Shown piece by piece: positions 3,879 through 27,748 of a stretch of 45,742 nucleotides of DNA; position 1 is the first letter of the stretch; every line of letters begins with the position of its first letter. The stretch is from a virus, in IMG/VR virus record IMGVR_UViG_3300009085_001438; one strand, written 5' to 3'. The notes under the pieces are model-generated. The model was not told the origin of the DNA. It saw nothing but the letters and a program-made list of their open reading frames with translations, and did no database searches. The position numbers and the translations under genes were made by a program.

Positions 3879-3895
3879 TATGTGAGCATAAAAAG

Positions 3896-3968
3896 AGCTG
3901 GCGGCGGGCTACGATCCCACGGCCTCTCGCTTACAAGGCGAGTGCTCTACCAACTGAGCTACACCAGC
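3896..3968 (-). tRNA. tRNA-Thr (anticodon UGU)
   Basis: Minus-strand read GCTGGTG TA GCTC AGTTGGTA GAGC A CTCGC CTTGTAA GCGAG AGGCC GTGGG ATCGTAG CCCGC CGCCAGC T. Perfect 7-bp acceptor, 4-bp D stem, 5-bp anticodon stem, loop CU-UGU-AA. Atypical T-loop ATCGTAG (A54/T58 instead of T54/A58). Confidence 0.7.
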
Positions 3969-6779: not shown

Positions 6780-7925
6780 TTAACTCCTTTCTCTAACGAC
6801 TTTCTTCAGCACCACATCAGATAGATAATTTAAGGATGCTGATCCATCATTATTAAAATACCAGATATTTCCATGATCATCTTGCTCAAGCGCTTTTGCT
6901 AAAATGCTTACCTTCTCTTCACACGTGCATTGACTAGCTAATCGTTTATGAATTTGCATTTGATCCAATCCGCGCTTTATTAGCCGCTCCATTTGTAAGT
7001 GAGCCGGACAAGCAACAACTAGCACATTATTATTACAAATGTGGTTAAGGTGTACTTCAGCTATGAGTGCGAAATTTAACACATACAACCCAGGACCTTC
7101 CGATAATTTAGCACGAATGCCATGTAATGTGCAAGGTGTTAAAAGAGTTGTCAGTGTTTTAACTGCTGAGGAACTCCCAAACACCTTTTCAGCTAACACT
7201 TTGCTGTTGATTGTTTCTGTTTTTGGATTTAGGATAATCTCCTTTCCAAAAGCTCTTATAACCTTTTGACGAGCTTCCATATACATGGCATTGCATGTAG
7301 AGTGATAAATTTCTTGAGTAATTTCATCCAAGTCAATCTCGTAAAACGGTATGGAAGATGTAGAGGTGTGTATATCTCGAAGCTTAGCTGTTATGTAGCT
7401 CTTTCCCACTCCGATTTCACCTGTAACACCTAAAATGTACTGCTTGTTTACTTTTGCTTCCAATGCTTCTTTCACTGCAAGAGGTGCACGAGGCGTAATA
7501 TCCAGGTGTAACTTTACCCTTTGTTTGAGTGTGGTGGATGATAGATCTGCATATGCAGGATCTGTGGGTAAAAATATTGTTTGAATATCTGGAGCTAGGA
7601 AAGCATTAACTTTGTACAGGGCACTTTCTGCTTCATAATCTTTCGCATTTCGGAGTCCACGCACAATTGTTTTTGCTCCAATTGTTTTCGCAAAATCTAC
7701 GGTTAACCCAGTGTAGGAACGGACACGTACATTAGGGAGATGTTTTAATGCATGTACTGCTAATGTTAATCTGTCAGCAATATTGAGAGTGGCTACCTTA
7801 TCCTCACTAGCTCCCAGCCCAACAAATACTGAGCCGAACATTGAAGCGGTACGTTCAATGATGTTTATGTGCCCTTGATGAATGGGATCCCCGCTTATTG
7901 GAATTAAACAAATACTAGTCTGCAC
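6780..7925 (-). CDS. coaDE: bifunctional phosphopantetheine adenylyltransferase / dephospho-CoA kinase (CoaD-CoaE fusion)
   Basis: N-term IPISGDPIHQGHINIIERTA matches the PPAT (T/H)xGH nucleotidyltransferase signature (E. coli YPGTFDPITNGHLDIIERA). C-term YILGVTGEIGVGKSY is a P-loop, and NVLVVACPAHLQMERLIKRG matches CoaE (YIVALTGGIGSGKST ... RVLVVDVSPETQLKRTMQRD). GTG start with AAGGAGG SD. Confidence 0.8.
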   Translation of the reverse strand: MQTSICLIPISGDPIHQGHINIIERTASMFGSVFVGLGASEDKVATLNIADRLTLAVHALKHLPNVRVRSYTGLTVDFAKTIGAKTIVRGLRNAKDYEAESALYKVNAFLAPDIQTIFLPTDPAYADLSSTTLKQRVKLHLDITPRAPLAVKEALEAKVNKQYILGVTGEIGVGKSYITAKLRDIHTSTSSIPFYEIDLDEITQEIYHSTCNAMYMEARQKVIRAFGKEIILNPKTETINSKVLAEKVFGSSSAVKTLTTLLTPCTLHGIRAKLSEGPGLYVLNFALIAEVHLNHICNNNVLVVACPAHLQMERLIKRGLDQMQIHKRLASQCTCEEKVSILAKALEQDDHGNIWYFNNDGSASLNYLSDVVLKKVVRERS

Positions 7926-9045: not shown

Positions 9046-9299
9046 GCTTTCACCCGGGCTAAATCACATGCATTTAAAAACTCACAAGTATTGCAATCAT
9101 CAGGGCAGCAAGCTTGTCTGCACTGTTCTATTAAGTTTTGCACTGCATCTGCACATTCATCATACGCTTGAATTGCATCAACACGTTGAGCTAAGTCTCT
9201 TTTCAGTACGAAATCTTGGCGCAAAGAGTTTAAGCTTTTCAGAACGCCCAAATCGTTATTCATTTTGCACTCCTTCAAGATAAACGAATTGAAACTCAT
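9042..9299 (-). CDS. Cys-rich hypothetical protein
   Basis: 85 aa with multiple Cys (CRQACCPDDCNTCEFLNAC). Confidence 0.4.
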   Translation of the reverse strand: MSFNSFILKECKMNNDLGVLKSLNSLRQDFVLKRDLAQRVDAIQAYDECADAVQNLIEQCRQACCPDDCNTCEFLNACDLARVKA

Positions 9300-9573
9300 A
9301 GCTTATTTGATAACTTAACGGCTTAAATGTTTCAAAAAAACATTTCGTTTCATCTATGAGATCCCATACACCGCACTCGTCTTCCACAAACAAAGTACCT
9401 TTAACGGCTACGGTTTTTTTGATTTCATTGAAACAGAGCTCAAATGGAGTGTTTTGAAAATAAATGCATTGGCACGTTGTAAAGCTTGGCGTATTTTTAG
9501 CAAAAAGCACTTTAACACAACTAAACAGCAAGATACATGCAACTAAAAGATTAATGATTTTTTTCTTTTGCAT
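9256..9573 (-). CDS. secreted or lipoprotein-like hypothetical protein
   Basis: N-terminal MQKKKIINLLVACILLFSCVKVLFA looks like a signal peptide with a lipobox-like LFSC. Confidence 0.45.
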   Translation of the reverse strand: MQKKKIINLLVACILLFSCVKVLFAKNTPSFTTCQCIYFQNTPFELCFNEIKKTVAVKGTLFVEDECGVWDLIDETKCFFETFKPLSYQISYEFQFVYLEGVQNE

Positions 9574-9591: not shown

Positions 9592-10485
9592 TTAGGTTGT
9601 TTTTTCTCTATTCCTTTTTGCTAGAGTTTCAAAGTGTGCTGCTTCTAACGCATTCGTTTTCTCCTTCTTACTGCATCTCCAACATACGCTTTGCACCTCC
9701 CCGTGTCTCTTTGTTCTCATAAAATTGCGCTTTGGTTGCTTACATATAGGACAAATACCTGTTAACATATTTCTCGTTACCTTTTGATCTGAGTCTAGCA
9801 CGTACTCATCTATAGCTTGTATTAGTTGTTTAACCTGCTCCGAAGTAAATGCTTCTTTTCGTTTCGTGCATCTACTAACTTGCCAATGTTTAATATAGAT
9901 TTGCTCCGCTTGTTTTACATAATCAAATACTTGGCAATAGCCAAGAGGTAGGGTTTTAAATCTAATGCTCTTATTTTTTGCAAGTACCGTTTGCAAAATA
10001 CGCTGCTCAAACACAACAGTGTTTAAATCATTAGCTTCAATCCATTGATCTATTAAAGATTTTACATTTGCATTGTTTGCAAAATACAACGTACCACTTA
10101 AAAGATGGTTAATGTGATTGATAAAAGCTGCAATATCAACTTGCATACCACTCAAAGTATCAAATAATTCTGGGTAACACTCCACCGTCGCATCAGCATC
10201 TAAAAAGACAACCGGGGTATTCACTCTGCTAAGAGCACGTTTTATAAAACGTGCTTTATAATCCGTGCAAGCTTTCCAGCTACCTAAATTAGGAATACCT
10301 TCAATATAGTAACTTAGTGGTAAAGCTTTTAAACTAGCTAATAACCGATATACAGCATCAATATACTCTTTTTCAAAGGTAAAATAGGAAATAATCGTAA
10401 ATTTAGCATTATCATTTCTGCGCGAAAATACATTAATCATTGTAGTATTGCTCTTTAATGTTACCATTTTTATGGGATACTGCAT
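9592..10485 (-). CDS. putative nucleotide-sugar glycosyltransferase (DxD) with C-terminal zinc finger
   Basis: VVFLDADATVECYPELF is a DxD motif. C-terminal CPICKQ...CWRCSKKEK forms a zinc ribbon. Confidence 0.45.
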   Translation of the reverse strand: MQYPIKMVTLKSNTTMINVFSRRNDNAKFTIISYFTFEKEYIDAVYRLLASLKALPLSYYIEGIPNLGSWKACTDYKARFIKRALSRVNTPVVFLDADATVECYPELFDTLSGMQVDIAAFINHINHLLSGTLYFANNANVKSLIDQWIEANDLNTVVFEQRILQTVLAKNKSIRFKTLPLGYCQVFDYVKQAEQIYIKHWQVSRCTKRKEAFTSEQVKQLIQAIDEYVLDSDQKVTRNMLTGICPICKQPKRNFMRTKRHGEVQSVCWRCSKKEKTNALEAAHFETLAKRNREKTT

Positions 10486-10792
10486 GCATAAAAATAGTGT
10501 CGATAAGTAATAGAATCGTTGTTAAAGGAGCTAAGCAGTTAAGAACTTTCATATATTCTAGAGTGCCTAACATGGGTTCCAAAAAGCGCTTACAGACTAG
10601 CCAACCTACCACTATCCAAACTGTAACAGTCCATACAGATAATATGAGTGCTGTAATAGTAAACCAAGGTTTTACCGGCCTGCATTTACCCAGTCTTTCT
10701 TCTGCGCGTATAAGGCTATACCGGCCTGCACCAATAATCAAACTAATAAATGCTACCAATAATAAAATTTGACTTGAAACATTTGAAAGCAT
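10433..10792 (-). CDS. membrane protein (multi-TM)
   Basis: 119 aa carrying three hydrophobic helices. Confidence 0.4.
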   Translation of the reverse strand: MLSNVSSQILLLVAFISLIIGAGRYSLIRAEERLGKCRPVKPWFTITALILSVWTVTVWIVVGWLVCKRFLEPMLGTLEYMKVLNCLAPLTTILLLIDTIFMHAVSHKNGNIKEQYYND

Positions 10793-10803
10793 GCGTTTCT
10801 CCT

Positions 10804-11004
10804 TTATTTTTTACGAGCGTTGCCTGGGCTAGCATAACCGGAATTAGCCCAACCTTCTCCTTGGAGTATAAAAGAAGCAGCTGCAATTAACCGTTCAATT
10901 TCTGTACCTTCACATTTTGGACAAATAGTAAGTTTTGGTTCCGTGACTTGTTGCACTACCTCAAATATACCGCATTGTTTGCATTGGTAGTCATATGTTG
11001 GCAT
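10804..11004 (-). CDS. FmdB-family zinc-ribbon protein
   Basis: MPTYDYQCKQCGIFEV...CPKCEG is the typical FmdB regulatory zinc-ribbon architecture. Confidence 0.55.
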   Translation of the reverse strand: MPTYDYQCKQCGIFEVVQQVTEPKLTICPKCEGTEIERLIAAASFILQGEGWANSGYASPGNARKK

Positions 11005-11020
11005 ATTTGACCCTTTCCTT

Positions 11021-11275
11021 TTAATGAGAAATGATGCGGGGAGGTGCAGAGTGATAAGTCTGTTGAGCTAAGCTTATTGCTGCTTTCTGAGTCGACACAC
11101 ACTGTGTGCAATAGTGCAGTTCATTAAGCACTCCCCAAATACCTAGTCTTCGTCCATGTATTTGAACCATCCAGCCGGGTTCCCTGCGAAATTCCCTGCG
11201 GCAATTACAGCACACTTTCCAAAGAAACCACGGCCAAATTTTTTTAGCTGTAAAATATGGATCACTTCGTTTCAT
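11021..11275 (-). CDS. Cys-rich hypothetical protein
   Basis: 84 aa with CCNCRRE...CTQC. Confidence 0.35.
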   Translation of the reverse strand: MKRSDPYFTAKKIWPWFLWKVCCNCRREFRREPGWMVQIHGRRLGIWGVLNELHYCTQCVSTQKAAISLAQQTYHSAPPRIISH

Positions 11276-11571
11276 AAATGGACCGTTTTTTCTGTGTTAA
11301 TGGTGTATTTACCTGCACTACTCACCGTGACTGTGGCTTCTCCATTTTGAATTGTTACCGTAAACTGTAAGTTTAAATTAAGTAGCTCTGCAATATCTAT
11401 GCATTCTTCAACTGTTAAACTTTTACAGCCGCCTCGCATTTCCAGAGCAATTGGTATTACATTAAGGTGCGAACAGACAAAAGACTCACCTAATTCATCA
11501 ATTGCTTTATCAATGTGTGGTTGTAATGCTTTCGCTATTCGTTCTTTTAAAATACATTTACTGTTGTCCAT
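11272..11571 (-). CDS. hypothetical protein
   Basis: 99-aa ORF. Confidence 0.4.
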   Translation of the reverse strand: MDNSKCILKERIAKALQPHIDKAIDELGESFVCSHLNVIPIALEMRGGCKSLTVEECIDIAELLNLNLQFTVTIQNGEATVTVSSAGKYTINTEKTVHL

Positions 11572-11581
11572 AAAATCTCCT

Positions 11582-12169
11582 TCATGCTGCTGTCCAACCT
11601 ACCTTTTTATCTATATTTACAAAGGTTGCGGGTTGAAAATCAAAATAAGGCATGAGTTTTTTCAGCTCCTCTTTGTAATCGAGCAGTAACTTATCATAGC
11701 TTATTGTGCCTACGTTACATGCAGCAAGGTTAAGCCAAGAATCTACATGTCTTTGATGAAAAGTGCTTGGCACATCCATCACACGCCGAAATAAGGAGTC
11801 CACTTGTATAACTTCTGTTTCATCTACTAATGTGCTTCTTTTTGCAAGTACACCTGCTCCTTGATTAGCAGTCCACATATCGCAATACCTTGTTGTTAAG
11901 AACTGCTCAAAACTCTCAGCTTGCAATCCGAAGCGTCTCCTCATAACCCAAACGGATTTTGCTACATTCTCAAACACACGATATGTATATACAAATAAAG
12001 TATTAGCGTGAGATTGCACTAGCTGCTCTGCTGCTTCACCCCAGCGGTGCCCTCCATAAAACTGAACATAGTTAGATGTGTCAAAAAAATTAGCAGCAAT
12101 TAGTGCTGCTAGATAATGACTTCCGGATCTAGGATGAGACATAACTTGTACATTAGCGTAAGTTCTCAT
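11582..12169 (-). CDS. sulfotransferase-family protein
   Basis: MSHPRSGSHYL matches the sulfotransferase 5'-PSB loop (PRSGS[TH]). A downstream R....S block resembles the 3'-PB motif. Confidence 0.5.
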   Translation of the reverse strand: MRTYANVQVMSHPRSGSHYLAALIAANFFDTSNYVQFYGGHRWGEAAEQLVQSHANTLFVYTYRVFENVAKSVWVMRRRFGLQAESFEQFLTTRYCDMWTANQGAGVLAKRSTLVDETEVIQVDSLFRRVMDVPSTFHQRHVDSWLNLAACNVGTISYDKLLLDYKEELKKLMPYFDFQPATFVNIDKKVGWTAA

Positions 12170-12549
12170 AGTGCTTTCTCTTTAAGAATGAACTTTTCTT
12201 TCAAGGCTTCAATAAGAGTAAAAAATTTAGCGTGAGTTGCATAATTATAATTTAGCTGAACAGCGTCATCCAAATCAAACGCCTTCTTTAGAGTTTTGAT
12301 AAGAATGTCCAGTTGCGAGTGTAAGTACTGTTCTAATAGGGGGCTTCTTCCGCCCGCCACCTCATCCCACAAACTCGTATATATCAATTTTTTGACCATA
12401 CTCCTATCTGAGTAGTTAACCCGCAATACAGCTACAATCAACTCACAAAGAGCTTCAAGAAATTTTTCTTCATAATTTTCTTCACAGAAGCATCCTGTGC
12501 CTGGCCTATAGAAATCCATATCTTCCTTTCTTACGTGCACGCCCACCAA
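12166..12549 (-). CDS. hypothetical protein
   Basis: 127-aa ORF. Confidence 0.4.
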   Translation of the reverse strand: MVGVHVRKEDMDFYRPGTGCFCEENYEEKFLEALCELIVAVLRVNYSDRSMVKKLIYTSLWDEVAGGRSPLLEQYLHSQLDILIKTLKKAFDLDDAVQLNYNYATHAKFFTLIEALKEKFILKEKAL

Positions 12550-12791
12550 AATCTTGTTTCAAGCTCTTGATTTGCTGCAAGCCATCTTTGCACTGCATCT
12601 TCTCCATCGCAAGCTTTGCACACTAAAAAATTGCCATAAGCACTACTATGCACCCAACGCCAAATGTCTCCAACTGCAAATGGGTGTCCGCAAAGATAGC
12701 ATTTAAATCGCTTACCCCTAGCCACTCCGCCCCAGGGAGCGTGGAGATCTGCTTCGGTTGCAATTCTAGGTTTTTGATCAGTGAAACTCAT
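12531..12791 (-). CDS. Cys/His-rich hypothetical protein
   Basis: 86 aa with CYLCGHPF...CKACDG. Confidence 0.4.
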   Translation of the reverse strand: MSFTDQKPRIATEADLHAPWGGVARGKRFKCYLCGHPFAVGDIWRWVHSSAYGNFLVCKACDGEDAVQRWLAANQELETRFWWACT

Positions 12792-12792
12792 A

Positions 12793-12972
12793 TTAATGCC
12801 AAGCTCCGCAGGCGCAGGGTCCTTTAGTCACATCGCAGTGCCCCCCAAACCTTCCCTCTAATTCTTCCATTTTTAATGGATCAACTGCCCCATTTTCATC
12901 AGTTGCATACGCTAGCACATCATTAAAGGTGTTACCTACGGTTTCTTTTTTTGATGCATCATCTTTACTCAT
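12793..12972 (-). CDS. hypothetical protein
   Basis: Likely start at MSKDDASKKE, preceded by AAAGGAG. Confidence 0.35.
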   Translation of the reverse strand: MSKDDASKKETVGNTFNDVLAYATDENGAVDPLKMEELEGRFGGHCDVTKGPCACGAWH

Positions 12973-12974
12973 TC

Positions 12975-13562
12975 TTATTCTCCTTTCAAGAGTCTGAATT
13001 GAGCTAATGACTCTAATAGCTCTAATTGACTTAAACACTCTTCCATAGTGGAGCCCACTGACACCACTCCATGAAAAGGGATTACAATTAGCGGTTGCTC
13101 TTTGAGTGCATGCAGGAACGCCATACTCCTTATAGTTTCTCCATAATCTTCTAGAATTTGAATCTTAGGCAATAACCATTTCGTTTCATGATTGTATGGG
13201 ACCAAATTAGCACTATTTTTGCTGTTCTCACTAAAATACATGGTAGTGTAAGGAGGATGTGCATGAATAACAACACACGGCGTGCCCCACTTCTTATGAA
13301 TTTCACAGTGCATGGGAGTCTCTGCAGAGGGTTTGAAATCACTTCTATATGCAGGAATCGTTCCATCTAACGTGACCTTACCAATATCTTCTACAACTTT
13401 TAAAAAGCCTAAATGACTCCCGGATCGTGTAATGTAGATTTGTGGTTCCGCATTTCCTTGTATGTGTAGAGGCACTGAACAAGATATATTGCCTCCTGTA
13501 GAGAGTACTAAGCGTCTCTCATATAGCGTCTTTCCCAGTTCTACTAAATTGCCACCCATCAT
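12975..13562 (-). CDS. class II aldolase/adducin-family protein (FucA / ribulose-5-P 4-epimerase / MTRu-1-P dehydratase fold)
   Basis: STGGNISCSV..., VVIHAHPPYTT (the HxH metal site) and VIPFHGVVSVGSTMEE align with FucA GTAGNVSVR, VVHNHAVHCT and LLQHHGLIACEVNLE. Confidence 0.7.
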   Translation of the reverse strand: MMGGNLVELGKTLYERRLVLSTGGNISCSVPLHIQGNAEPQIYITRSGSHLGFLKVVEDIGKVTLDGTIPAYRSDFKPSAETPMHCEIHKKWGTPCVVIHAHPPYTTMYFSENSKNSANLVPYNHETKWLLPKIQILEDYGETIRSMAFLHALKEQPLIVIPFHGVVSVGSTMEECLSQLELLESLAQFRLLKGE

Positions 13563-14442: not shown

Positions 14443-15012
14443 TTATCCCTTAAGGCTTTCTGTAATATGTTTATCCACAGCTCCTTCATTGGTATTGTAT
14501 CCACCTGCGTATATCCCAGCCTTTTCACTGGCACTAATCACAAATTGACCTGCACAAGCTCCCACTTCAAGAATCACTGGACCGTTCAAAACATAAATAA
14601 GCCCGTTCACATGACCTTTAAACCCGGAATCATACAAACCACTCGTTACTAAAACACCGTTACGATTCAAACTGGACCTAGTTTGTACCCATCCTGCAAA
14701 CCCTTCAGGCATTTCCACATAAAGATCCGTTGTGTAATCATATACTCCAAGCTTTAAGTACCAACTTCTGTAATCCGCTGTTATCTCCTTTTTATCTGGA
14801 GTCGTGCCTATTACAAGTCTTCTTACATGAGGCTGTACTAGCTTACGTGGCCTATGCTTCTTATCCTTTGCAGTAATAATACACGTAGAATTTGAATCTA
14901 ACTCATACAACGCATGTACCGGAATATCTATGCCATTTGGTTGAATTTGTGCATCTTTGATATTACCTCTCAACCAACCTTCAACTATTGCTTTTTTTGG
15001 ATTTATAAACAT
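14443..15012 (-). CDS. dcd: dCTP deaminase / dUTPase-superfamily protein
   Basis: MFINPKKAIVEGWLRGNIKDAQIQPNGIDIPV aligns with E. coli Dcd [35 protein letters not shown]. Downstream TRSSLNRNGVLV matches GRSSLARLGLMV. Start placed at the internal Met matching the Dcd N-terminus. Confidence 0.7.
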   Translation of the reverse strand: MFINPKKAIVEGWLRGNIKDAQIQPNGIDIPVHALYELDSNSTCIITAKDKKHRPRKLVQPHVRRLVIGTTPDKKEITADYRSWYLKLGVYDYTTDLYVEMPEGFAGWVQTRSSLNRNGVLVTSGLYDSGFKGHVNGLIYVLNGPVILEVGACAGQFVISASEKAGIYAGGYNTNEGAVDKHITESLKG

Positions 15013-15523
15013 GTGACTTACCCTGCTTTCTTCGTGCTTTACGTAAAAAATACAAATCTCCAATTACTTTTATTTCCATAAAAACAAAAACAAATAAAAC
15101 ACTAAATGTTGAATGCACAGCTAGCTGTAAGAGAAAAAATGCAATTACAAGAGAATGCCAAAACACTGCAGTACTTAATACCATTTGGAGTAAGAGTTTG
15201 CACCTGTCTGCCAATTGCAAGCATACATTCCTTTACTAAAAAGCTTGTCTAATTCCTGTAATAAATTTTATATAACAACAATTGACCTCTGTAACAGTGC
15301 CGGCTTCTCTCTCGATAATCCCGCAAAGCTCATCCTCCCTGACTGTTCTAGTCCATTCAATCCTTTAACGTGTAACATAATTACTTCTCCTGCTTACTTA
15401 TTATTGTGCTGATTTTCACACGCTTCACAGGTGCACTCTACGCATAGCACTGCACCACACTTTTCACACACACATACGTATCAGCTTCTTCCACTTCTTC
15501 TAAGCAATTACTGCAAATTTCCA

Positions 15524-16165
15524 TCAGATTCCTTTCTCGGATATAGCATTTTTAACGTTTTCGTAAAACTCTAACTTTGCATGATCTTCCTTGTCCAAAA
15601 ATGCCCCGGAGAGCTTAGTGGTTTTCATTACGCTAGGGTGTTCCACACCTCGCAATTTAACACACAAATGCTGAGCTGAAATATGCACTGCTACCCCGAG
15701 ATTGCCCTCACACACTTTATCAATGTATTGATGAATTTGCATTGTGAGTTCTTCTTGAATTTGAGGTCTTCTTGCAAACCACTCCACTATTCTATTTATT
15801 TTACTTAACCCAATCACTTTACTATCTGGCGTAGGTATGTAAGCTACATACGCGTGGCCAAAAAAACTCACATGGTGGTGTGCACAAAAACTATTCACTG
15901 TAATATTACCTTGAAACACCATACCATCATAGTGATTCATATTATCAAAAGCTGTAATAACAGGAGGTGTTGTGTAGCATCCTTGGGCGATTTCATTAAG
16001 CCACATTTTTGCAACCCGCTTAGGTGTGTCTTTCATGTTTGGATCCGCTTGCCAGTTAAACCCAAGAGCATCTAAAAACTTTGCGTATGCAGCTTCAGCT
16101 AAACGCAACCTTGTTTTAATTGCTTCTTGTGAAAGTATTTCGTTGCTATTACAAAACTCTAACAC
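15524..16165 (-). CDS. folE: GTP cyclohydrolase I
   Basis: HHVSFFGHAYVAYIP...SKVIGLSKINRIVEWFARRPQIQEEL...HLCVKLRG matches the FolE core (CEHHLV..G.A.VAYIP...GLSKINRIV..FA.RPQVQE). Confidence 0.9.
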   Translation of the reverse strand: MLEFCNSNEILSQEAIKTRLRLAEAAYAKFLDALGFNWQADPNMKDTPKRVAKMWLNEIAQGCYTTPPVITAFDNMNHYDGMVFQGNITVNSFCAHHHVSFFGHAYVAYIPTPDSKVIGLSKINRIVEWFARRPQIQEELTMQIHQYIDKVCEGNLGVAVHISAQHLCVKLRGVEHPSVMKTTKLSGAFLDKEDHAKLEFYENVKNAISEKGI

Positions 16166-16176
16166 TCTTCTTCCTC

Positions 16177-17079
16177 CTACTGTCTAAGTAATTTTGCACA
16201 GTGTATCTGGTAGGCACATAAGTTGTGGTCCAACAGTTCAAAACTAGTTGCACGCACAGGGCAAATATCAATCCCACCTCGTCTCGTGTAAACAGCTGCT
16301 ACCATTAAATCCGAAGGTTTGCAATAGGTAAACAATCTTTGATAAATCATTTCTACAACTTCTTCATGAAAATGGTTTTCATTCCTGAATGAAACAATGT
16401 ACTGCAGCAAAGACAACTCAGATAATTTGTGGTAGGAACGCATGTATACAAATAACGTGCCCCAATCAGGCTGATGAGTAATTTTACAGTTGCTCCGAAG
16501 TACATTAGTTGTGCATGCAAGGATGTTTGGTGCATCTTGTTCCACGCTTTGTAATAGTGCGGGATCCTCTTTGAAAGATGTAAACTTGATGCCACCTACT
16601 CCTTCTAATTGTTCCAGCACTGTCCATTCACGTTGAAAAACAGGTGCGTTGCCTGCTTCTTCAAAATATTCCACAGCTACTCGCACCTCTAAAAGTTCAC
16701 TCAGATCCCTTCGAATACAAGCAAGCACGCCTCGCAATGCCTCATCTTTTGTAGGCCCCATCTGTGTCATGTTGAATGAATTTAAGTACAGCTTTAAGCT
16801 CTTACTCTCTACTATATACTGACTATAAGATGGGTAGACGATTTTAGCCACTCCGCTTACAGGTAAATTATTATTGGTAAGAAAACTCACTTCGTAAGCA
16901 TTCCACACATCGTACCCAATAAATGGAAGATCAGTATCCTCTATACCGTACTGCAATCTATTTTCCGAACGCGGAACGCGAACTAGAACGCTAGGATCAT
17001 ATTTTACAGGTGCGTCAACGCGTTTACCTAAAATGTGCTCTTCAGCTTTGGTGGCTGTTTTTGGTGTTGGTTTTAACAT
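16177..17079 (-). CDS. queF: NADPH-dependent 7-cyano-7-deazaguanine (preQ0) reductase, type II (two-domain)
   Basis: ESKSLKLYLNSFN (the QueF motif), SNCKITHQPDWGT (catalytic Cys / QPDW), YIVSFRNENHFHE and YTRRGGIDICP align end to end with E. coli YqcD/QueF. Confidence 0.9.
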   Translation of the reverse strand: MLKPTPKTATKAEEHILGKRVDAPVKYDPSVLVRVPRSENRLQYGIEDTDLPFIGYDVWNAYEVSFLTNNNLPVSGVAKIVYPSYSQYIVESKSLKLYLNSFNMTQMGPTKDEALRGVLACIRRDLSELLEVRVAVEYFEEAGNAPVFQREWTVLEQLEGVGGIKFTSFKEDPALLQSVEQDAPNILACTTNVLRSNCKITHQPDWGTLFVYMRSYHKLSELSLLQYIVSFRNENHFHEEVVEMIYQRLFTYCKPSDLMVAAVYTRRGGIDICPVRATSFELLDHNLCAYQIHCAKLLRQ

Positions 17080-17090
17080 AATTAATTCCT

Positions 17091-17906
17091 TTAAAAAGCT
17101 TTATAGTTTACGTATTCTCCATAATTTACAAACTCTCTGAACCGTTGTATATTGTGCATGATACGCTCTACATCTTGATTCCCTTTTGGTTCATAATTTA
17201 ACAATTCAGGTATTTTAATTGATTTCTTTTCCCATAAGCCGAAATCGTCATATTCAATTCCACAAATTCCGTGCACGATAGGTGAAGAGGTGTCTAAAGA
17301 TCTAATCCACTTATACGGAGCATAAAAACTGAACTCTCTTGGATTAGAAGCTCCTAGCAAATGATGAGGTTTTTCGGTATTTATAATGCCATCTTTAGCT
17401 AACTTACCTAATAAACCAATTCGCCCTAACATCCAGGAAATGCATTTACTAGGATGAGGGGTACTTTTCTCGTAATAACTATAATCAAAGCTAATGCCGA
17501 TCTTATCTACATGTGCATCCATGTATTTATAACATTTTACAATTTCTTCATAAGTTTTTCCTTGGACTACTCCAATCTTTTTTCCAGGTAAATTGTATTT
17601 AGCTAACCACATTTGACAGTTTTCTATAGTGCGATTACAGTCTTCAAGCACATCCGGGATAATATAGTAAGTAGGTTGAAGCTTCTCTATCCAAGAAGCA
17701 TAATTATCTCCAGAGTAAGCTTGCCCGAGCTCTTGAACGCTATTATCTAAAATCACCTCTCGCCCAAGTTTAAGACATTTACTAAAAAAGTCTCGGTACT
17801 TTGCACACTCTGAAAAGAGGTGCACAAGCGCGTAATCATAATCATTAAAATACAAGCTTGCCTCTAAGAAACTTAAAGGAGCTTCGTGGGATATCTTAAT
17901 AGACAT
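17091..17906 (-). CDS. dpdA: TGT-family (tRNA-guanine transglycosylase-like) protein lacking the zinc subdomain; DpdA-like DNA 7-deazaguanine transglycosylase candidate
   Basis: VILDNSVQELG resembles TGT LTDSGGFQ. GVVQGKTYEE resembles GIVQGGVFEN. EKPHHLLGASNP resembles DKPRYLMGVGKP. IRSLDTSSPIV resembles IDMFDCVLPT. No CxCxxC...H zinc site. Sits immediately downstream of folE-queF. Confidence 0.55.
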   Translation of the reverse strand: MSIKISHEAPLSFLEASLYFNDYDYALVHLFSECAKYRDFFSKCLKLGREVILDNSVQELGQAYSGDNYASWIEKLQPTYYIIPDVLEDCNRTIENCQMWLAKYNLPGKKIGVVQGKTYEEIVKCYKYMDAHVDKIGISFDYSYYEKSTPHPSKCISWMLGRIGLLGKLAKDGIINTEKPHHLLGASNPREFSFYAPYKWIRSLDTSSPIVHGICGIEYDDFGLWEKKSIKIPELLNYEPKGNQDVERIMHNIQRFREFVNYGEYVNYKAF

Positions 17907-17908
17907 AG

Positions 17909-18304
17909 TTAACTTTTCCTTCTGAAAAAAGCTTTTGTGGTTCTAATTGCTTTACAGATAGTAGTACCAATTACTCTAAAGTCATCCCCAAAACCAAAAT
18001 CTTCCGTAATGTGCCTCATCGGCGGAGGCGTGGGAGGTGGCGGAGGTGTGTGACTCTGTCCTATACCTCCTTTTGGAGCTTTCGGTTCTACTTCCACTGC
18101 ACCTTTTGGCTGGTATCCGCAAATGTTTGCAAGATCATGGGCTTGTTGCTCTACTAGATTTAAAACAGTGTTTGCTCTGCTTCGAATCTTTTTAATCTGC
18201 TCTTGCTCCTCTGAAGTGCACTCCTCCCACACACTTTCAGAGTAACGCTCTGAATCAGGCAAGTAAGAGAGTAGTTCTTGACATAAATCTTTCAAAACTT
18301 TCAT
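17909..18304 (-). CDS. hypothetical protein with a poly-proline tract
   Basis: 131 aa containing HTPPPPPTPPPMRH. Confidence 0.4.
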   Translation of the reverse strand: MKVLKDLCQELLSYLPDSERYSESVWEECTSEEQEQIKKIRSRANTVLNLVEQQAHDLANICGYQPKGAVEVEPKAPKGGIGQSHTPPPPPTPPPMRHITEDFGFGDDFRVIGTTICKAIRTTKAFFRRKS

Positions 18305-18315
18305 TTGATTTACCT

Positions 18316-19140
18316 CTAAGAAAGTGTAATGTGTATAATATCTTGTATTTCGGGGTTGCCATATGTTGCATGGCCTGTTCGAACAACTAAATTTGGAAGT
18401 GCATAATAGGTGCCAGCACTATGCGTGTGCCCGCACAGCACGGTAAGGTTTTTAGCAGGAAAGGCTTTCATTACTTCTTTTAACGTGTCTCCAACAGCTT
18501 TACAACTAAAATGAGGCAAATAATAGTCTGAAGAAGCGTGGCCCTGATGCCAAGCAGCTTCTGCAAACGGAGGCACATGCATTACCGCAAAAACATGATC
18601 ATACTCCTTAAATGCTTCTAACAAAGCAGTGCGAAACAACGCTGCTGATTCATCTCCTAGAGCATTTAACTTTCTAAGACGCTCTTCTTTAGTAAGATAC
18701 TGCAACTCTTTAATTTGATAGTAATCATTAAGGGTTACGCTTGAATTTTTATAGTCTCCATAGCGGCCATCCGCCCAGGAGTCGTACCCGATCAAGCAAA
18801 CCCTTGTAGATAGAGGCACTAGACCTTTAAATGGCAAATAAAATAACCAGGATTCCTGGGGGATTTCTACAACCGCTTCTCGCGTTTTGCTTATTGAACT
18901 ACCATAACAATCATGGTTACCTAGCACAAAATAGATTGGAGTACGTACTATATTAGCTAACAAGTTTAAATCATGACACAAACGCGTGCTTGTAGATATG
19001 TCTCCACTAATAATAATGCCAGCTAGTAATAAATTATCTAACCGTGCACCGAGTAGTTTAATTTCATCTATGGTGCAGTGATCTAAATGTATATCAGTTA
19101 ACCAAGCTAATTTCACGTTTACTCTTCCTATAAATTTCAA
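18316..19140 (-). CDS. calcineurin-like metallophosphoesterase
   Basis: Motif series LTDIHLD (DxH), GDISTS (GD), GNHD, HVPPF and GHTHS. Confidence 0.8.
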
Positions 19141-20087
19141 CCAAGTAAAAAAGCTGTATATGTTTTTCGCAGTCCCTCGCCAAGTGTTGTAGTATGGTGC
19201 CAGCCTAGCTTATGTATTTTAGATACATCTAATTCTTTTTTAGGTGTGCCATCCGGTTTAGATGTGTCATAAATTATTTTACCAGAATAACCAACCACAT
19301 CTCTAATCTTCTCTGCAAGATCCTTAATAGAAATTGACTCTCCTGTGCCTACATTGATTGGCTCGGAGGAATTATAATTCTCTAACAAGAAAACACACGC
19401 ATCAGCTAGATCATCTACATACAAAAATTCTCGTAAAGCTTTACCTGTTCCCCACACTGCAACTTCAGGCTTTCGCTTTATTTTAGCTTCATGGAATTTT
19501 CTTATTAATGCAGGTAATACATGTGCATTTTCTAAGTGGTAGTTATCCCTTGGCCCATAGAGATTTGTAGGCATAGCACAAATAAAGTTTGTACTGTATT
19601 GCTTGTTGTAAGCTTGGCACATCTTGATACCGGCAATTTTAGCTACCGCATATGCTTCATTAGTCTCTTCTAGGGGACCTGTAAGTAGGTATTCCTCTTT
19701 AATTGGCTGCGGGCAATCTCGAGGGTAAATGCAGGAACTGCCAAGAAAGAGGAGTTTTTTTACTCCATAAACATTAGCAGCATTAATTACATTAGTTTGA
19801 ATCATTAAGTTATGATAGATGAAGTCTGCCGGGTAAGTGCTGTTCGCATAAATGCCTCCTACTTTAGCTGCCGCTAAAATAATATACTCCGGCTTTTCAT
19901 AATCTATCACTTTATGTACAACAGCTTGGTCAGCTAGATCAAACTCAATGTGCGGTTTTATAACAACATCTCGATACCCGTTCAGTGCTAATTTCCGCAC
20001 AATAGCTGAACCCACTAACCCAGTGTGCCCCATCACAAAAATTTTACTGCACTTATCCATGTTACTCTTGCTCACCTTCAAGTGCAT
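19137..20087 (-). CDS. fcl: GDP-L-fucose synthase (GDP-4-keto-6-deoxy-D-mannose 3,5-epimerase/4-reductase)
   Basis: [47 protein letters not shown] and [30 protein letters not shown] are almost collinear with E. coli Fcl ([29 protein letters not shown]). Confidence 0.9.
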
Positions 20088-20446: not shown

Positions 20447-20951
20447 TTAATCTCCTTTTTGATAATATTTCCCTGCAGCAAATGCTCTTATAGTAGCTAC
20501 TCTAGCTATTAAATCTGCTTCCCATGCACAATTCCAAACGCGATGGCCGTCTACTATTTCTGGCAAATTTAGCTTAGGGCTTAATGGGTTTAAGAAACAA
20601 TGATTGATCCGTTCTAAGATTTGTTCAACATCTACTACATCTGCACGCATAGCTAACTCTGAAAATTCATGAAACAGCCCCATGAATTGGTGCTGGTACT
20701 TCTTTGTTATAGCTATGTTGTCTACCCAAGGACCTAAACAATTGCATGTAATACGATCCTTGGACAGCCAAGCAATTACTTTTTTAGCTGTACGTGTGGA
20801 GCAACGTACAGCTAAATCATCGTTCTCTCGAAAGAAATGCCAATAAGGATCTTTTGATAGTACCGCTACCCAAAGATTTTTAAAAAATCTTTCGTGATTT
20901 ACAATATGATTAAAGAGGTATCACTAAATTTTGCATTTTAACTCTTGCCAT
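20447..20951 (-). pseudogene. gene interrupted by an apparent +1 frameshift at CUU-UAA (13-codon leader ORF plus ~155-codon open +1 frame)
   Basis: AGGAGGTG-N7-ATG opens MARVKMQNLVIPL*. The +1 frame is open from that stop through ...KDPYWHFFRENDDLAVRC...MGLFHEF...YYQKGD* and contains no ATG, GTG or TTG before the track's 78-aa Met. Confidence 0.35.
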
Positions 20952-21029
20952 AAACACACCTCCTGTGAATAATTTTAATCAATTTACAGATTTTAGTGTG
21001 AAATGTTGGGAGGAAACAAAGAAAAAGCG

Positions 21030-21449: not shown

Positions 21450-21947
21450 CTAATTGACCATAATAAGTGTGGTTGACCCTGGTGCATAATCAACCACATT
21501 AACATTCGGAAACACACTTAACACTATGTTTAAATAGGTGTCCCAGTCCCCACCGCCTCTGCAACACCCCATGAACTTAGGCATAAACAGAGCACAAAAC
21601 TTTGACATAACAGGATGGGTTTTGAGCTCCTCTAAAGCAATACGCACCTTATCATACTTTGTTGGCATTTCGTTACAGCACTGTAAGCATTGCCCGAAAA
21701 TATTAGCTACATAAACGTTCTTCCTTATCTCTACCAGCTGAGCTTTACCCAGTAACTCTTCTGAGGTGAATTGATTACACAGATCTAAATATTCTTTGTA
21801 CACTTTCGGCCATTTTTGCCTTATAGATAAAGCTATTCCTGCACCCATGATACCTTGGTTATTCACTTGATGCATTAAAACAAGAGGTAACGTAGAGTCT
21901 TGAATAACATCTGGAACTACTAATAAATCACCCTTCCAGGTTTTCAT
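21450..21947 (-). CDS. Macro-domain (ADP-ribose binding / ADP-ribosyl hydrolase-like) protein
   Basis: LVLMHQVNNQGIMGAGIALSIRQKWP matches the macro-domain N...G.MGAGIA core, as in OARD1/TARG1 CRMGAGIA and nsP3 NAAN..L.GGGV...KKWP. 165 aa. Confidence 0.65.
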   Translation of the reverse strand: MKTWKGDLLVVPDVIQDSTLPLVLMHQVNNQGIMGAGIALSIRQKWPKVYKEYLDLCNQFTSEELLGKAQLVEIRKNVYVANIFGQCLQCCNEMPTKYDKVRIALEELKTHPVMSKFCALFMPKFMGCCRGGGDWDTYLNIVLSVFPNVNVVDYAPGSTTLIMVN

Positions 21948-23557: not shown

Positions 23558-24178
23558 CTAATAAATAGCTCCGCTTTTGTACACAGAAACTATTTCATCT
23601 CTAGTTAAAAGTGCACAAGCTTTAACACCTACTTTTTCAATATTAGCCATCCCATCATTTTCTTGCCGATCCACTACAACAATAGCATGCTCTACAATTA
23701 ATCCAAATTCACGAGCTTTTTCAATGGCTGTAATTGTAGAAGCACCAGTTGTAACTACATCATCTACGATTACTGCATGCTCGCCTGGAACAACCGGGCC
23801 TTCTATACTTTTTTTAGTCCCATGATCCTTTTGGGCTTTACGCACAATAAAAGCTTTAACCACCTTTCCCGGACCGCCTGTGCGTAAAAGCTCCATCTGA
23901 TAATAAAAAGCTACAGCAGTCGCAATAGGATCAGCACCCATTGTCAACCCGCCAACGGCTTCAAAATGCACATCTTTCAAGATTTCCGTTGTCATGGTAG
24001 CAATCAAATGCATGCCGGATGGGTGCAGTGTGGCTTTACGACAATCAATATAATAGTTGCTTAACCCGCCTGAAGAAAGAGTGAATGGAGTTTCTTCATT
24101 GTACAGAAAAGCCTTTGTAGATATTAATAATTGAATTAAGGCATCTTTTTGAGATTGTAATGTAGACAATTGCGACAT
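23558..24178 (-). CDS. pyrE: orotate phosphoribosyltransferase
   Basis: FTLSSGGLSNYYIDCRKA, KAQKDHGTKKSIEG and AVIVDDVVTTGASTITAIEKAREFGLIVEHAIVVVDRQE align with E. coli PyrE (FTLKSGRKSPYFFN; KEAKDHGEGGNLVG; VMLVDDVITAGTAI...LISLDRQE). Confidence 0.8.
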   Translation of the reverse strand: MSQLSTLQSQKDALIQLLISTKAFLYNEETPFTLSSGGLSNYYIDCRKATLHPSGMHLIATMTTEILKDVHFEAVGGLTMGADPIATAVAFYYQMELLRTGGPGKVVKAFIVRKAQKDHGTKKSIEGPVVPGEHAVIVDDVVTTGASTITAIEKAREFGLIVEHAIVVVDRQENDGMANIEKVGVKACALLTRDEIVSVYKSGAIY

Positions 24179-24187
24179 GTTATCTCC

Positions 24188-24436
24188 TTAAAATTGCTTA
24201 GCTTGCTGAAGATTGTTTCTCATTTGATTAAGATGCTCGTGTGCTTCTTCAAGTCTTTTTTGCCAATATGTAATTAAAGCTGATTTTGCTTCTTCACGTG
24301 TTCGGCGATACCATGTCCATTTTGAATTTTTTGGCACAATTTCATCTTTAATTGTTAAGTAACCATCACTTATTGAACCTTCTGCTATGATTTGCTCAAT
24401 AGCATTTGAAAAAGCACATGCTCTGTACCAAAGCAT
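24188..24436 (-). CDS. hypothetical protein
   Basis: 82-aa ORF. Confidence 0.4.
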   Translation of the reverse strand: MLWYRACAFSNAIEQIIAEGSISDGYLTIKDEIVPKNSKWTWYRRTREEAKSALITYWQKRLEEAHEHLNQMRNNLQQAKQF

Positions 24437-24457
24437 AATTCCTAACCTTTCTAAGCT

Positions 24458-24691
24458 CTAGCTCTCCCCTAAAAGCTCATTATAATTTTCCTCTAGTTGT
24501 TCGCATTTACCTTGAAGAGAGTCATAATCTTGTTGAAGATCATGAAACTGATCTTGTAAATTTTTAAGTTCTTCTTTCAATGTAGCCGCAGTATCCCTTT
24601 CTGCATTAAGCTCTCTGAGTGCTTCACAAACCGGGCAGCTTGTGCGGTCCTCAATACACACTTCTTCATGTCCATCATTACAAAGATACAT
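24458..24691 (-). CDS. coiled-coil hypothetical protein with N-terminal Cys cluster
   Basis: 77 aa: CIEDRTSCPVCEAL followed by a heptad-like region. Confidence 0.4.
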   Translation of the reverse strand: MYLCNDGHEEVCIEDRTSCPVCEALRELNAERDTAATLKEELKNLQDQFHDLQQDYDSLQGKCEQLEENYNELLGES

Positions 24692-24703
24692 TAGCTAACC
24701 CTC

Positions 24704-26296: not shown

Positions 26297-26710
26297 TTAC
26301 TGCTTACAAAACTGCGATATGTTAGCTGTGCGGGTTTGAACCTTTTCTGCTAAACGTGCTAGAAATACTTGCAAAAACTCGAAGTTGGTCACCGATACAA
26401 ACATTACATTGTTTACATGACTTTTACTATAGTAGCACATGCTGTATTCAATAAACTCTACCGCTGACATGCATAAGCTAATAGGTAAGACTAGCGTGTT
26501 CAATGCATACAGTGTAAGAGGTTGCCCATTTATCTCAATTACAGTTATCATCTGCATTCGTTGGGTAGCTAAGTTTATTCCCTGCTCTTCATTAAATGCT
26601 TCTTTCTTAGAACATCTACACCAACCAAACCTCAAACACCCATCGTCATCTATATCTGCCACGAATAACCCGACAGGTTTTTGTTTTTCCCGTATCCATT
26701 GAATCACCAT
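26297..26710 (-). CDS. hypothetical protein
   Basis: 137-aa ORF. Confidence 0.45.
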   Translation of the reverse strand: MVIQWIREKQKPVGLFVADIDDDGCLRFGWCRCSKKEAFNEEQGINLATQRMQMITVIEINGQPLTLYALNTLVLPISLCMSAVEFIEYSMCYYSKSHVNNVMFVSVTNFEFLQVFLARLAEKVQTRTANISQFCKQ

Positions 26711-27399: not shown

Positions 27400-27412
27400 A
27401 AAATTTCCTTTT

Positions 27413-27748
27413 TCATATTTGTAGCATGCCAGAAGGCTGCTGAATAATAGGTTTTGGATACCAGTCAAACACATCTAATAATGTTTTTTGCAGAATACAG
27501 AGTGGGCGCATCTCCCGGCTCTCTACAATCACTTTGGGGTAATCAAACACTAAATTACCAACTCGGTCCGATATGGTGATATTGCGCAAATAGAGTTGCG
27601 GTTGATCCTGAACAACACAACTTAACATAAACACCGCAGTTGCACATGCAAGAACAGCACTCCAATACATACTCCGACGATCTTTATAGATACCGTATCC
27701 AAAATACACTAAACCTGCTAGCAAGTACAGCAATGCAAGGAGATCCAT
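27413..27748 (-). CDS. small membrane protein
   Basis: MDLLALLYLLAGLVYFGYGIY...AVLACATAVFMLSCVV gives two TM helices. Confidence 0.4.
   Translation of the reverse strand: MDLLALLYLLAGLVYFGYGIYKDRRSMYWSAVLACATAVFMLSCVVQDQPQLYLRNITISDRVGNLVFDYPKVIVESREMRPLCILQKTLLDVFDWYPKPIIQQPSGMLQI

Follow-up and report, generated by a model that had tools for sequence, protein, structure and literature searches.

Viral DNA of 45,742 nt (IMG/VR record IMGVR_UViG_3300009085_001438; hereafter the window, meaning the full stretch) carries genes for a GDP-L-fucose synthase (Fcl), a sulfotransferase (ST), a glycosyltransferase (GT) and a class II aldolase-fold enzyme. The locus raises the question of whether these enzymes act together on a glycan, as an earlier note on the sequence had suggested. 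The window is part of the genome of a very large phage, and every gene in it lies on one strand. All four enzyme open reading frames were found on the minus strand (Table 1). Profiles, family alignments and structure models bore out the four enzyme identities that the note had assigned, and the match of the four frames to their enzyme families is far beyond chance.

Table 1. Features of the locus, with positions in the window
Coordinates	Strand	Feature	Basis
9592..10485	-	GT: GT-A fold glycosyltransferase, PF03407 (Nucleotid_trans) type, 297 aa	homologues, DxD motif, AF2 model and Foldseek
9673..9756	-	CxxC...CxxC zinc ribbon in the basic C-terminal GT tail, ~ residues 244-271	sequence
10433..10792	-	119-aa protein with 3-4 hydrophobic helices	directly upstream of GT, overlapping GT
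11582..12169	-	ST: minimal PAPS-type sulfotransferase, 195 aa	family motifs, family profile, AF2 model and Foldseek
12975..13562	-	class II aldolase-fold, metal-dependent enzyme	PF00596, 2irp alignment
19137..20087	-	Fcl: GDP-L-fucose synthase (Fcl/WcaG/GMER)	NF047922, solved homologues, motifs
20447..20951	-	homologue of the conserved 156-176-aa protein of relatives	homology; reading frame interrupted

Judged by its sequence, Fcl is a GDP-L-fucose synthase. It matched solved enzymes of this function with E 7e-109 (7ll6) and 4e-106 (E. coli 1bws), and its alignment to the NCBIfam equivalog NF047922 was full-length (14-314 to 3-302/308), narrowly missing the cut-off (472.6 bits; cut-off 500). 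In the alignment with the solved enzymes, Fcl retains the motifs GSSCIYP, YAVAK and HVLPAL, and we take the roles of the catalytic Ser/Cys, Tyr-x3-Lys and His to be those of the E. coli enzyme. The Fcl stop overlaps the start of a downstream metallophosphoesterase gene. The earlier observation that gmd is not seen in the window held up: no Gmd homologue was found in the 45.7 kb by tblastn (E>5) or by phmmer, which returned nothing.

Sequence and model together identify ST as a real small PAPS-type sulfotransferase whose activity is predicted. Like PAPS sulfotransferases (PF00685 Sulfotransfer_1, PF13469 Sulfotransfer_3 and the cytosolic SULTs), it has a 5'-PSB loop, an R-x7-S 3'-PB motif and the fold of that group, and a His lying between the two motifs is near-invariant; the solved SULTs, whose matched chains measure 250-300 aa, are ~100 residues longer. 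Unlike members of the named Pfam families, it scores below the gathering cut-off when searched alone, with PF13469 as the only match (E 0.014; 16.1 bits; cut-off 27). Its family, which includes 170 relatives, gave a clearer result: PF00685 was matched by 76 of 84 members at E<=0.01, and the family profile matched solved SULTs at E 1.5e-15. In that comparison the 5'-PSB loop, HPRSGSH (residues 12-18), aligned with PKSGTHW of SULT7A1, and the family consensus YIxRNFxDVxxS aligned with RNPKDTAVS. R14 and G16 of the loop are invariant across 84 sequences. The earlier note had allowed that the motif might be a chance match lacking 3'-PB residues; both residues of the 3'-PB motif, R64-x7-S72, proved invariant in the same 84 sequences. 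The AF2 model (pLDDT 97, pTM 0.92) had only PAPS sulfotransferases among its top 50 Foldseek matches in the PDB, with query-normalised TM-scores of 0.48-0.57. The nearly invariant H41 lies between the two PAPS motifs, 23 residues ahead of R64, and is a candidate catalytic His; the catalytic base in SULTs is His, and the equivalent His-Arg spacing in SULT1E1 is 22. Near the C-terminus, KKVGW holds a near-invariant G191. The statement that sulfotransferases are rare in phages was overstated. The family of the window ST had no match among 50,697 GenBank phage records, but other sulfotransferases have been annotated in cyanophages, Xanthomonas phage FoX4, many uncultured Caudovirales and giant viruses (PMC10580990 and database annotations).

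The GT is, by the same two kinds of evidence, a GT-A glycosyltransferase. The window protein alone failed the profile searches that had been proposed for it, with no direct match in Pfam, PHROG or NCBIfam, but its 21 homologues supported the assignment: 10 of them matched PF03407 at E<=0.01 (best 4.9e-8), three carry a precomputed PF03407 annotation, and both aspartates of the DxD motif DADA (D96 and D98) are invariant in all 21. Some homologues are fused to SAM methyltransferases. The AF2 model (pLDDT 85.9 overall, >90 over residues ~21-200) gave 164 Foldseek PDB matches (E<=1e-3). A64R, GT6, GT8, LH3 and LARGE1 headed the list and are all GT-A; the best was the capsid glycosyltransferase A64R of chlorovirus PBCV-1 (2p72; E 6e-8), with GT6/GT8 enzymes next. 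The fold is of the retaining type and the enzyme is described as soluble. The JGI gene call is 282 aa long, starting from M16, and M16 at 10440 is likely the true start; the catalytic domain covers ~ residues 17-210. The C-terminal zinc finger that had been noticed on the GT is present as a CxxC...CxxC sequence, and was modelled as two short strands at 255-268 (pLDDT ~58-67). It is homologous to residues 56-99 of a stand-alone 134-aa protein in contig L012 (E 1.4e-4), and among the homologues examined only the window protein has it fused to the GT. The sole GenBank phage match for the GT family comes from an uncultured 462-kb phage.

The aldolase-fold enzyme scored 106.3 bits against PF00596 (E 2.2e-30; cut-off 22.2). 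Its closest solved relative is Aquifex aq_1979 (2irp; E 1.3e-9), and the metal ligands in PSAET, HAHPP and HGV align with the SAE, HxH and HG positions of 2irp. Its scores for the specific equivalogs FucA, MtnB and AraD all fell far short of the cut-offs, with FucA_Meth the best at 78.4 bits (cut-off 250), then 59.1 for MtnB (137) and 22.4 for AraD (389). Its gene occupies a lineage-specific block between FolE and ST. It is missing from all related phage contigs, had no match in phage or IMG/VR searches, and in contig L019 FolE directly abuts ST with no such block in between. Its inclusion in the toolkit was not borne out, and because it is absent from the relatives the enzyme probably stands outside the module of Fcl, ST and GT.

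For these three, gene order in related contigs tells otherwise, and the genes appear linked. In contigs L012-14 the order is Fcl, a 176-aa protein, ST, a 119-aa membrane protein and GT; in L018 and L028 it is Fcl, the 176-aa protein and ST, and an Fcl homologue adjoins ST, with the 176-aa protein in between, in L013, L018 and L028. Contigs L001/L002 have a 94-aa homologue, ST, a 74-aa protein and GT. Amino-acid identity among these relatives is only 40-55%. The conserved protein of 156-176 aa, which has no Pfam or PDB match, sits directly upstream of ST in the relatives. In its window homologue the frame breaks near 20910: the ATG at 20951 is followed by 13 codons and a TAA, and homology resumes in the +1 frame. 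In L012-14 a protein of identical length takes the place of the window's 119-aa protein, lying between ST and GT; sequence similarity between the two is undetectable, and no Pfam family was found for the window protein. Beyond these relatives, a GT-family gene overlaps the gene of a non-orthologous ST subfamily in contig L004, and in L003 the GT clusters with Sulfotransfer_3, Capsule_synth, PS_pyruv_trans and radical SAM enzymes and GT2. In another viral contig (L063) the GT family lies ~7 kb from Fcl, and a 743-aa Marseillevirus "glycosyltransferase" contains an ST-like domain. Bacterial homologues of ST have GT2 enzymes within a few genes, and those of GT sit in polysaccharide loci. The accessory glycan toolkit of the earlier note survives for Fcl, ST and GT, which appear linked, are adjacent in related contigs and, in the case of the GT family, found with non-orthologous STs elsewhere, but not for the aldolase.

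We give about an even chance to the reading that Fcl, ST and GT, with the aldolase excluded, form a phage-borne module by which a sulfated glycoconjugate is made or remodelled inside the cell during infection. The product would most likely be a sulfated, possibly fucose-containing glycoconjugate. In the first step, the host or a gene outside the 45.7-kb fragment would supply GDP-4-keto-6-deoxymannose and PAPS. Fcl, whose enzyme identity is well founded, would then turn the keto-sugar into GDP-L-fucose. The soluble GT-A enzyme, with the fold and DxD motif for such a reaction, would transfer a sugar to an acceptor, either a glycan or a protein, and the 195-aa ST, with its PAPS motifs and fold, would O-sulfate that glycan. 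We propose that the conserved 156-176-aa protein, plus the small membrane protein in some lineages, belong to the module. Within this reading, a host envelope polysaccharide or lipid-linked precursor is a tentative candidate for the carrier and a virion protein an unlikely one.

Several observations count against the module. Its three genes span 10.5 kb in the window, with a DNA-modification cluster in between. Gmd lies within 8 kb at 57 of 80 IMG/VR Fcl loci and is absent here, and a Pfam scan, which covered all minus-strand window ORFs of at least 110 aa, found no PAPS-synthesis genes. The fold of the GT differs from that of most known fucosyltransferases. Contig L017 has two tandem STs of the window family with no GT nearby, a SNF2 helicase and an RNA polymerase subunit adjoining them. 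An HNH endonuclease gene cuts short the Fcl homologue of contig L013, in which ST and GT are intact, so a phage supply of fucose is dispensable.

There is a small but real probability that no common pathway exists, and that a huge phage carries Fcl, ST, GT and the aldolase as unconnected accessory genes, neighbours in relatives through inherited order in one phage group. The contigs with ST and GT are indeed related, having in common homologues of a 728-aa protein, CoaDE, a macro-like protein and FolE; they are perhaps of common ancestry, in which case some of the shared order may have been passed down without reflecting a joint function. Intervening genes differ between lineages, and the co-orientation of the enzyme genes is uninformative because all window genes lie on one strand. 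Yet ST and GT have stayed no more than ~1 kb apart wherever a lineage offers enough downstream sequence, despite identity of 40-55% and turnover of the intervening genes, and that this one GT family pairs with non-orthologous STs in L004 and L003 also speaks against mere inheritance.

Between Fcl and ST the window holds a 7-deazaguanine DNA-modification cluster (FolE, QueF and DpdA), which the earlier note had not mentioned. Its DpdA shares 55% identity with the protein annotated as DNA guanine transglycosylase in Flavobacterium phage immuto_2-6A, and 44% with a hypothetical protein from Campylobacter phage CP220. It is mainly because this cluster separates Fcl and ST that hypermodified DNA stays alive as a target. 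On this reading, DpdA, QueF and FolE would install 7-aminomethyl-7-deazaguanine (dPreQ1) in the phage DNA; ST and the GT, the latter with a basic zinc ribbon in its tail, would decorate that or another base with sugar or sulfate. We regard this as improbable. The FolE that abuts ST in L019 is 67% identical to that of the window, the GT C-terminus has a net charge of ~+9 over its last 92 residues, and the helicase and polymerase neighbours of the L017 STs fit the same idea. Proven DNA-modifying phage GT-A enzymes likewise have PBCV-1 A64R as top match (bioRxiv 10.1101/2023.12.21.572611). On the other side, L001 and L012-14 carry the ST-GT pair but show no deazaguanine gene, the sequence being short for most of these contigs; two lineages have a multi-pass membrane protein between ST and GT; in bacteria, homologues of both enzymes occur in polysaccharide rather than DNA-modification loci; the Pfam scan of minus-strand window ORFs of at least 110 aa found no 5hmC- or 5hmU-generating enzymes of the kind that go with known DNA GTs; and sulfated DNA bases are not known. 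The specific form in which Fcl, ST and GT surround FolE, QueF and DpdA as a DNA-hypermodification island, the 7-aminomethyl-7-deazaguanine placed by DpdA being further glycosylated and/or sulfated, is highly improbable; if true, DNA would for the first time be known to contain a sulfated or deoxyhexose-bearing purine.

That the compound sulfated by ST and glycosylated by GT is of low molecular weight, for instance a metabolite, signal or toxin, and not a polymer is also hardly probable: the best sequence and fold matches of ST are cytosolic SULTs acting on small molecules, and the antibiotic sulfotransferases StaL, Teg12 and Teg14 are among its weaker matches, but ST is shorter than the matched SULT chains and its bacterial relatives sit in GT2-rich polysaccharide loci.

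The sulfated-glycoconjugate module can be compared with several known systems. Enzymes of PF03407/CAZy GT77 (Dictyostelium AgtA and plant RGXT) are DxD GT-A enzymes like the window GT. The two GT77 activities that have been characterised each attach a sugar to an L-fucose acceptor, which would fit the neighbouring Fcl; no solved GT77 structure was among the Foldseek matches listed for the GT. Virion glycosylation in mycobacteriophages is not known to involve a nucleotide-sugar synthase or sulfotransferase; these phages and their hosts are unrelated to the window phage, and no structural genes were seen in the window. There, according to Freeman et al. 2023 (cited in PMC12619734), phage glycosyltransferases act in the cytoplasm, attaching sugars to proteins of the capsid and tail tube. 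The GT-A enzymes of phage DNA glycan hypermodification (Pyle et al.), like the window GT, have PBCV-1 A64R as their best match and sit in DNA-modification gene clusters. The window GT also lies near such genes, but of the 7-deazaguanine type, whereas what defines the enzymes of Pyle et al. is the presence next door of C5-methyltransferase/5mYOX or thymidylate-synthase-like genes making 5hmC; the window has none, the Pfam scan of minus-strand ORFs of at least 110 aa revealing no C5-MT/5mYOX and no dCMP/dUMP hydroxymethylase.

Closer in content are the glycan or "LPS" islands of cyanomyoviruses (S-SCSM1, P-SSM2 and S-SRM01), in which the Fcl of cultured phages is 55-57% identical to that of the window and is accompanied by glycosyltransferases, fucosyltransferases and methyltransferases. 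Sulfotransferases are annotated in cyanophages S-SCSM1 and P-SSM7, that of S-SCSM1 lying outside the ~79 kb inspected around the Fcl island, and in S-SRM01 (PMC10580990). The cyanomyovirus Fcl is paired with Gmd and has a wcaG RNA motif ahead of it, whereas the window has neither. As in the window, PBCV-1 encodes a GDP-L-fucose synthase and soluble DxD GT-A glycosyltransferases, and among solved structures domain 1 of A64R matches the fold of the window GT best, at a sequence identity of only ~15%. A064R of PBCV-1 is fused to a SAM methyltransferase (PMC5408694), an arrangement that some homologues of the window GT also have. PBCV-1 differs in being a eukaryotic giant virus with both GMD and GMER, which the window, lacking Gmd, does not match, and in having the capsid protein Vp54 as its target. 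ST belongs to the window set, whereas glycan sulfation goes unmentioned in the PBCV-1 review, where "sulfat" occurs solely in SDS-PAGE (PMC5408694). The module proposed here would be a variant of virus-encoded glycan machinery with a sulfotransferase in the set.

All four ORFs that an earlier note had grouped as a glycan and sulfation toolkit, namely a sulfotransferase (ST), a GT-A glycosyltransferase (GT), a GDP-L-fucose synthase (Fcl) and a class II aldolase-fold protein, are present in the window at the positions given there (see table). As a single sequence, ST found nothing usable in Pfam, PHROGs or NCBIfam and only chance-level PDB matches with phmmer, and its E-value on PF13469 was 0.014, under threshold. 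An exhaustive HMMER search, with ST and its single close relative as the query, gathered 170 relatives. Only four columns are invariant in an 84-sequence ST alignment: two in the HPRSGSH loop (R14, G16) and the R-x7-S pair R64 and S72. The first two belong to the 5'-phosphosulfate binding motif of PAPS sulfotransferases and the last two to the 3'-phosphate binding motif; their invariance disposes of the concern, raised in the note itself, that the motif was a chance match. PF00685 was matched by 76/84 family members, the family profile reached solved cytosolic sulfotransferases at E 1.5e-15 with both motifs aligned, and the best 50 PDB matches of the AlphaFold model (pLDDT 97) were all PAPS sulfotransferases (50/50). 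Judged by alignment and predicted structure, the window ST is a genuine and unusually small sulfotransferase. The family had no representative among GenBank phages, and the ST type of contig L003 likewise matched no phage. Two tandem ST-family copies occur in a 183-kb IMG/VR viral contig (L017, 9992–11219), flanked by an SNF2-type helicase and by genes including those for a GNAT-like protein and an RNA polymerase beta-type subunit; the window GT family is not represented nearby.

Positions of features in the window
Feature	Position	Strand	Remark
tRNA-Thr	3895-3968		
CoA biosynthesis genes	6780-7925, 26704-27474, 28071-28670	-	
105-aa ORF	9256-9573	-	
GT	9592-10485	-	
FmdB-type zinc-ribbon protein	10804-11004	-	66 aa; PF09723 E 4.6e-16
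ST	11582-12169	-	195 aa
Aldolase	12975-13562	-	
dCTP-deaminase/dUTPase-like gene	14443-15063	-	
FolE	15524-16165	-	
QueF	16177-17079	-	300 aa
DpdA	17091-17906	-	
Metallophosphoesterase	18316-19140	-	
Fcl	19137-20087	-	
Member of the 156-176-aa family	20447-20951	-	broken at 20900-20960
Macro-domain-like protein	21450-21947	-	165 aa; weak Pfam match, E 0.0085
Phosphoribosyltransferase-like protein, T4 Rnl1-type RNA ligase, pentapeptide-repeat protein	23558-25804, 29792-30373	-	
FtsH-like, RNase HII and RdgC-like proteins	32516-36471	-	626, 203 and 384 aa; three neighbours
Homologue of eukaryotic major vault protein	37947-40343	-	798 aa; MVP_shoulder E 7.6e-28, Vault_3
tRNA-Asn	42139-42212		
tRNA-Glu	42761-42836		

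Direct searches with GT (Pfam, PHROGs, NCBIfam) gave no family match, and PDB phmmer reached chance level only. The GT family profile also drew only chance matches from PDB sequences; since the sequence profile was uninformative, a comparison of folds was needed. The GT model (pLDDT 85.9) has a GT-A fold, and the closest solved fold was the PBCV-1 capsid glycosyltransferase A64R; next came retaining GT6 and GT8 enzymes. Among 21 GT homologues, D96-A-D98 is invariant and PF03407 is matched by 10. The C-terminal zinc finger described in the note is there as a CxxC...CxxC ribbon, which stands as a separate protein in relatives. GT homologues also occur fused to SAM methyltransferase domains (Caballeronia, metagenomes) or to MptE-like domains (P0014-P0018, P0011, P0013), and the 462-kb phage LR756500 has one within an ORF of about 840 aa (L015, 9248–11767). 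Directly downstream of GT in the window is the 105-aa ORF, for which no family was found; LLFSC, resembling a lipoprotein signal, closes its N-terminal hydrophobic segment, and its product may be secreted or reside in the envelope.

In L001, the 52-kb contig with the closest ST homologue, a GT homologue lies one gene downstream of ST, and directly upstream is a homologue of ORF 20447-20951, which belongs to a conserved family of 156-176-aa proteins with no relative in Pfam or PDB. A third lineage (L012-14; L018 and L028 for the first three genes) has the order Fcl, a 176-aa homologue of the same ORF, ST, a 119-aa multi-pass membrane protein and GT, and 3' of GT come a 164-aa protein and then a 134-aa protein with a zinc ribbon. 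Upstream of GT, the window likewise has a membrane protein of 119 aa in the matching place; it shows no sequence similarity to that of L012, and the two are counterparts by position only. The GT family adjoins STs of other subfamilies as well, and at locus L004 the ST and GT genes overlap. In L003, GT is part of a polysaccharide-type cluster with a sulfotransferase, Capsule_synth, PS_pyruv_trans, radical SAM enzymes and GT2. An ST-like domain is also present within a 743-aa 'glycosyltransferase' of Marseillevirus. Bacterial GT homologues have GT2, polysialyltransferase-like, LicD and methyltransferase genes as neighbours, and Desulfobacterota ST homologues have GT2 enzymes within a few genes. 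From the gene order in relatives, the other ST subfamilies beside the GT family and the bacterial polysaccharide contexts, we conclude that ST and GT would work together on a glycan as a functional pair, with Fcl and the 156-176-aa protein as its frequent companions. We give an even chance to the reading that Fcl, ST and GT make up a sulfated glycoconjugate module. Set beside this linkage, the alternative that the genes share no pathway is unlikely.

Several other features of these intervals were recorded. The FmdB-type zinc-ribbon protein and several other small Cys-rich ORFs lie between ST and GT. A GtrA-like flippase identity for the 119-aa membrane protein was dropped, being without Pfam support. 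ORF 20447-20951 has an ATG at 20951 behind a strong AGGAGG site and reads 13 codons to a TAA; from CTT_TAA_T onward the homology runs in the +1 frame, and the two pieces together are as long as the homologues. An indel or pseudogene would explain the break, as would a prfB-like +1 frameshift site.

The aldolase is a clear PF00596 member with aligned metal ligands, and no specific equivalog was reached. The note had called it FucA-like; a link to fucose through FucA fails, as the scores are far under the equivalog cut-offs. FucA is a catabolic enzyme and is unrelated to GDP-fucose use. The aldolase is absent from every relative, and no homologue was found in GenBank phages or in an IMG/VR pattern scan. 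In locus L019, a FolE 67% identical to that of the window directly abuts ST, while in the window a 3.4-kb stretch comes between them, with the dUTPase-like gene and two small genes, then the aldolase, then a further three small genes. Because relatives lack it, the aldolase was rejected as a member of the module, and we treat it as a putative lineage-specific insertion. The interpretation in the note is partly borne out: the toolkit stands for Fcl, ST and GT, by their identities and their linkage in relatives, and is unsupported for the aldolase.

Fcl matched solved GDP-L-fucose synthases at E 7e-109 with conserved catalytic motifs, and its NCBIfam equivalog score of 472.6 bits is slightly under the cut-off of 500. 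As the note had observed, no Gmd was found in the window; a bona fide Gmd lies within 8 kb at 57/80 viral Fcl loci. PAPS-synthesis genes (cysC/N/D, sat) were absent among all minus-strand ORFs of at least 110 aa in the window, so the host, or the remainder of a far larger genome, would have to provide both supplies. In L013 (162–2150), as in L021, the Fcl homologue stops after about 190 residues and an RRXRR-HNH endonuclease gene follows, which in L013 looks like a mobile insertion that destroyed Fcl. Fcl is intact in L028, of the same lineage. Since ST and GT are intact in L013 despite the shortened Fcl, phage-made fucose is not obligatory for the pair. The wcaG RNA motif is absent upstream of the window Fcl. 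L028 (279–749) has a counterpart of the macro-domain-like protein, 48% identical and lying just upstream of Fcl.

A 7-deazaguanine DNA-modification cluster, missing from the earlier note, lies between Fcl and ST (14443-19140, minus strand). At 55% identity, its DpdA resembles a protein annotated as DNA guanine transglycosylase (DpdA) in Flavobacterium phage immuto_2-6A, and Campylobacter phage CP220 has a hypothetical protein 44% identical to the window DpdA. QueC, QueD and QueE are absent from the window, and the presence of QueF suggests DNA of the preQ1 type. GT and ST might then act on deazaguanine DNA, an idea kept alive by the position of FolE-QueF-DpdA, by A64R being also the best match of DNA-modifying phage GT-A enzymes, by the basic zinc ribbon of the GT tail and by the helicase and RNA polymerase subunit adjoining the tandem STs of L017. 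However, the available DNA of other lineages has the ST-GT pair without deazaguanine genes, bacterial homologues are housed in polysaccharide loci, a membrane protein lies inside the pair and the window is without 5hmC or 5hmU machinery; we therefore consider hypermodification of DNA by this pair quite improbable. Modification of a small molecule is just as improbable.

The window is a complete JGI metagenome contig of 45,742 bp with a GC content of about 0.39, and all ORFs accepted as real genes are on the minus strand. Its phage-like features are three tRNAs, a T4-type RNA ligase and a 728-aa phrog_2426 protein common to Ackermannviridae, PBS1/AR9 and Rhizobium myoviruses. The vault-like protein shares 46% identity with proteins from uncultured huge phages (LR756500, LR756501 and LR756503; 462 kb, 735 kb), with no further match among GenBank phages, and Fcl is 59% identical to that of the 735-kb phages LR756501/LR756503. 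Since these relatives sit in phages of 462-735 kb, the window is probably a piece of a very large phage. No near-identical DNA was found in 50,697 GenBank phage records queried with the 9-21 kb region. Among the CoA gene products, one joins a CoaD-like cytidylyltransferase to CoaE, and the others are a CoaB-like DFP domain and a CoaC-like flavoprotein. L001 carries the CoaD-CoaE fusion too, and GenBank phage matches of the fusion span the N-terminal half only. The FtsH-like protein has AAA+ and M41 peptidase domains.

The ST family and its GT partner yield a concrete two- or three-gene unit open to expression and assay. If this unit makes a sulfated glycan on the host surface or on virions, sulfation would join the known phage chemistry for receptor alteration or particle shielding; should it instead modify deazaguanine DNA, that would be a DNA modification of a new class. 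Chloroviruses are an established case of viruses that encode glycan machinery with an Fcl (PMC5408694). In cyanomyoviruses, the annotated Fcl is paired with Gmd amid fucosyltransferases and other GTs, whereas the window has no Gmd. The S-SCSM1 sulfotransferase was not within the approximately 79 kb inspected around the glycan island. Several phages and giant viruses have annotated sulfotransferases; such annotations recur, with a function stated to be unclear (PMC10580990), and our literature search found no characterised one. New here are a defined minimal ST family, compact at 195 aa with intact PAPS-binding motifs, and the fact that it is repeatedly paired with a single GT-A family. Phages and bacteria both have this GT-A family together with sulfotransferases, and a giant virus has it fused to one.
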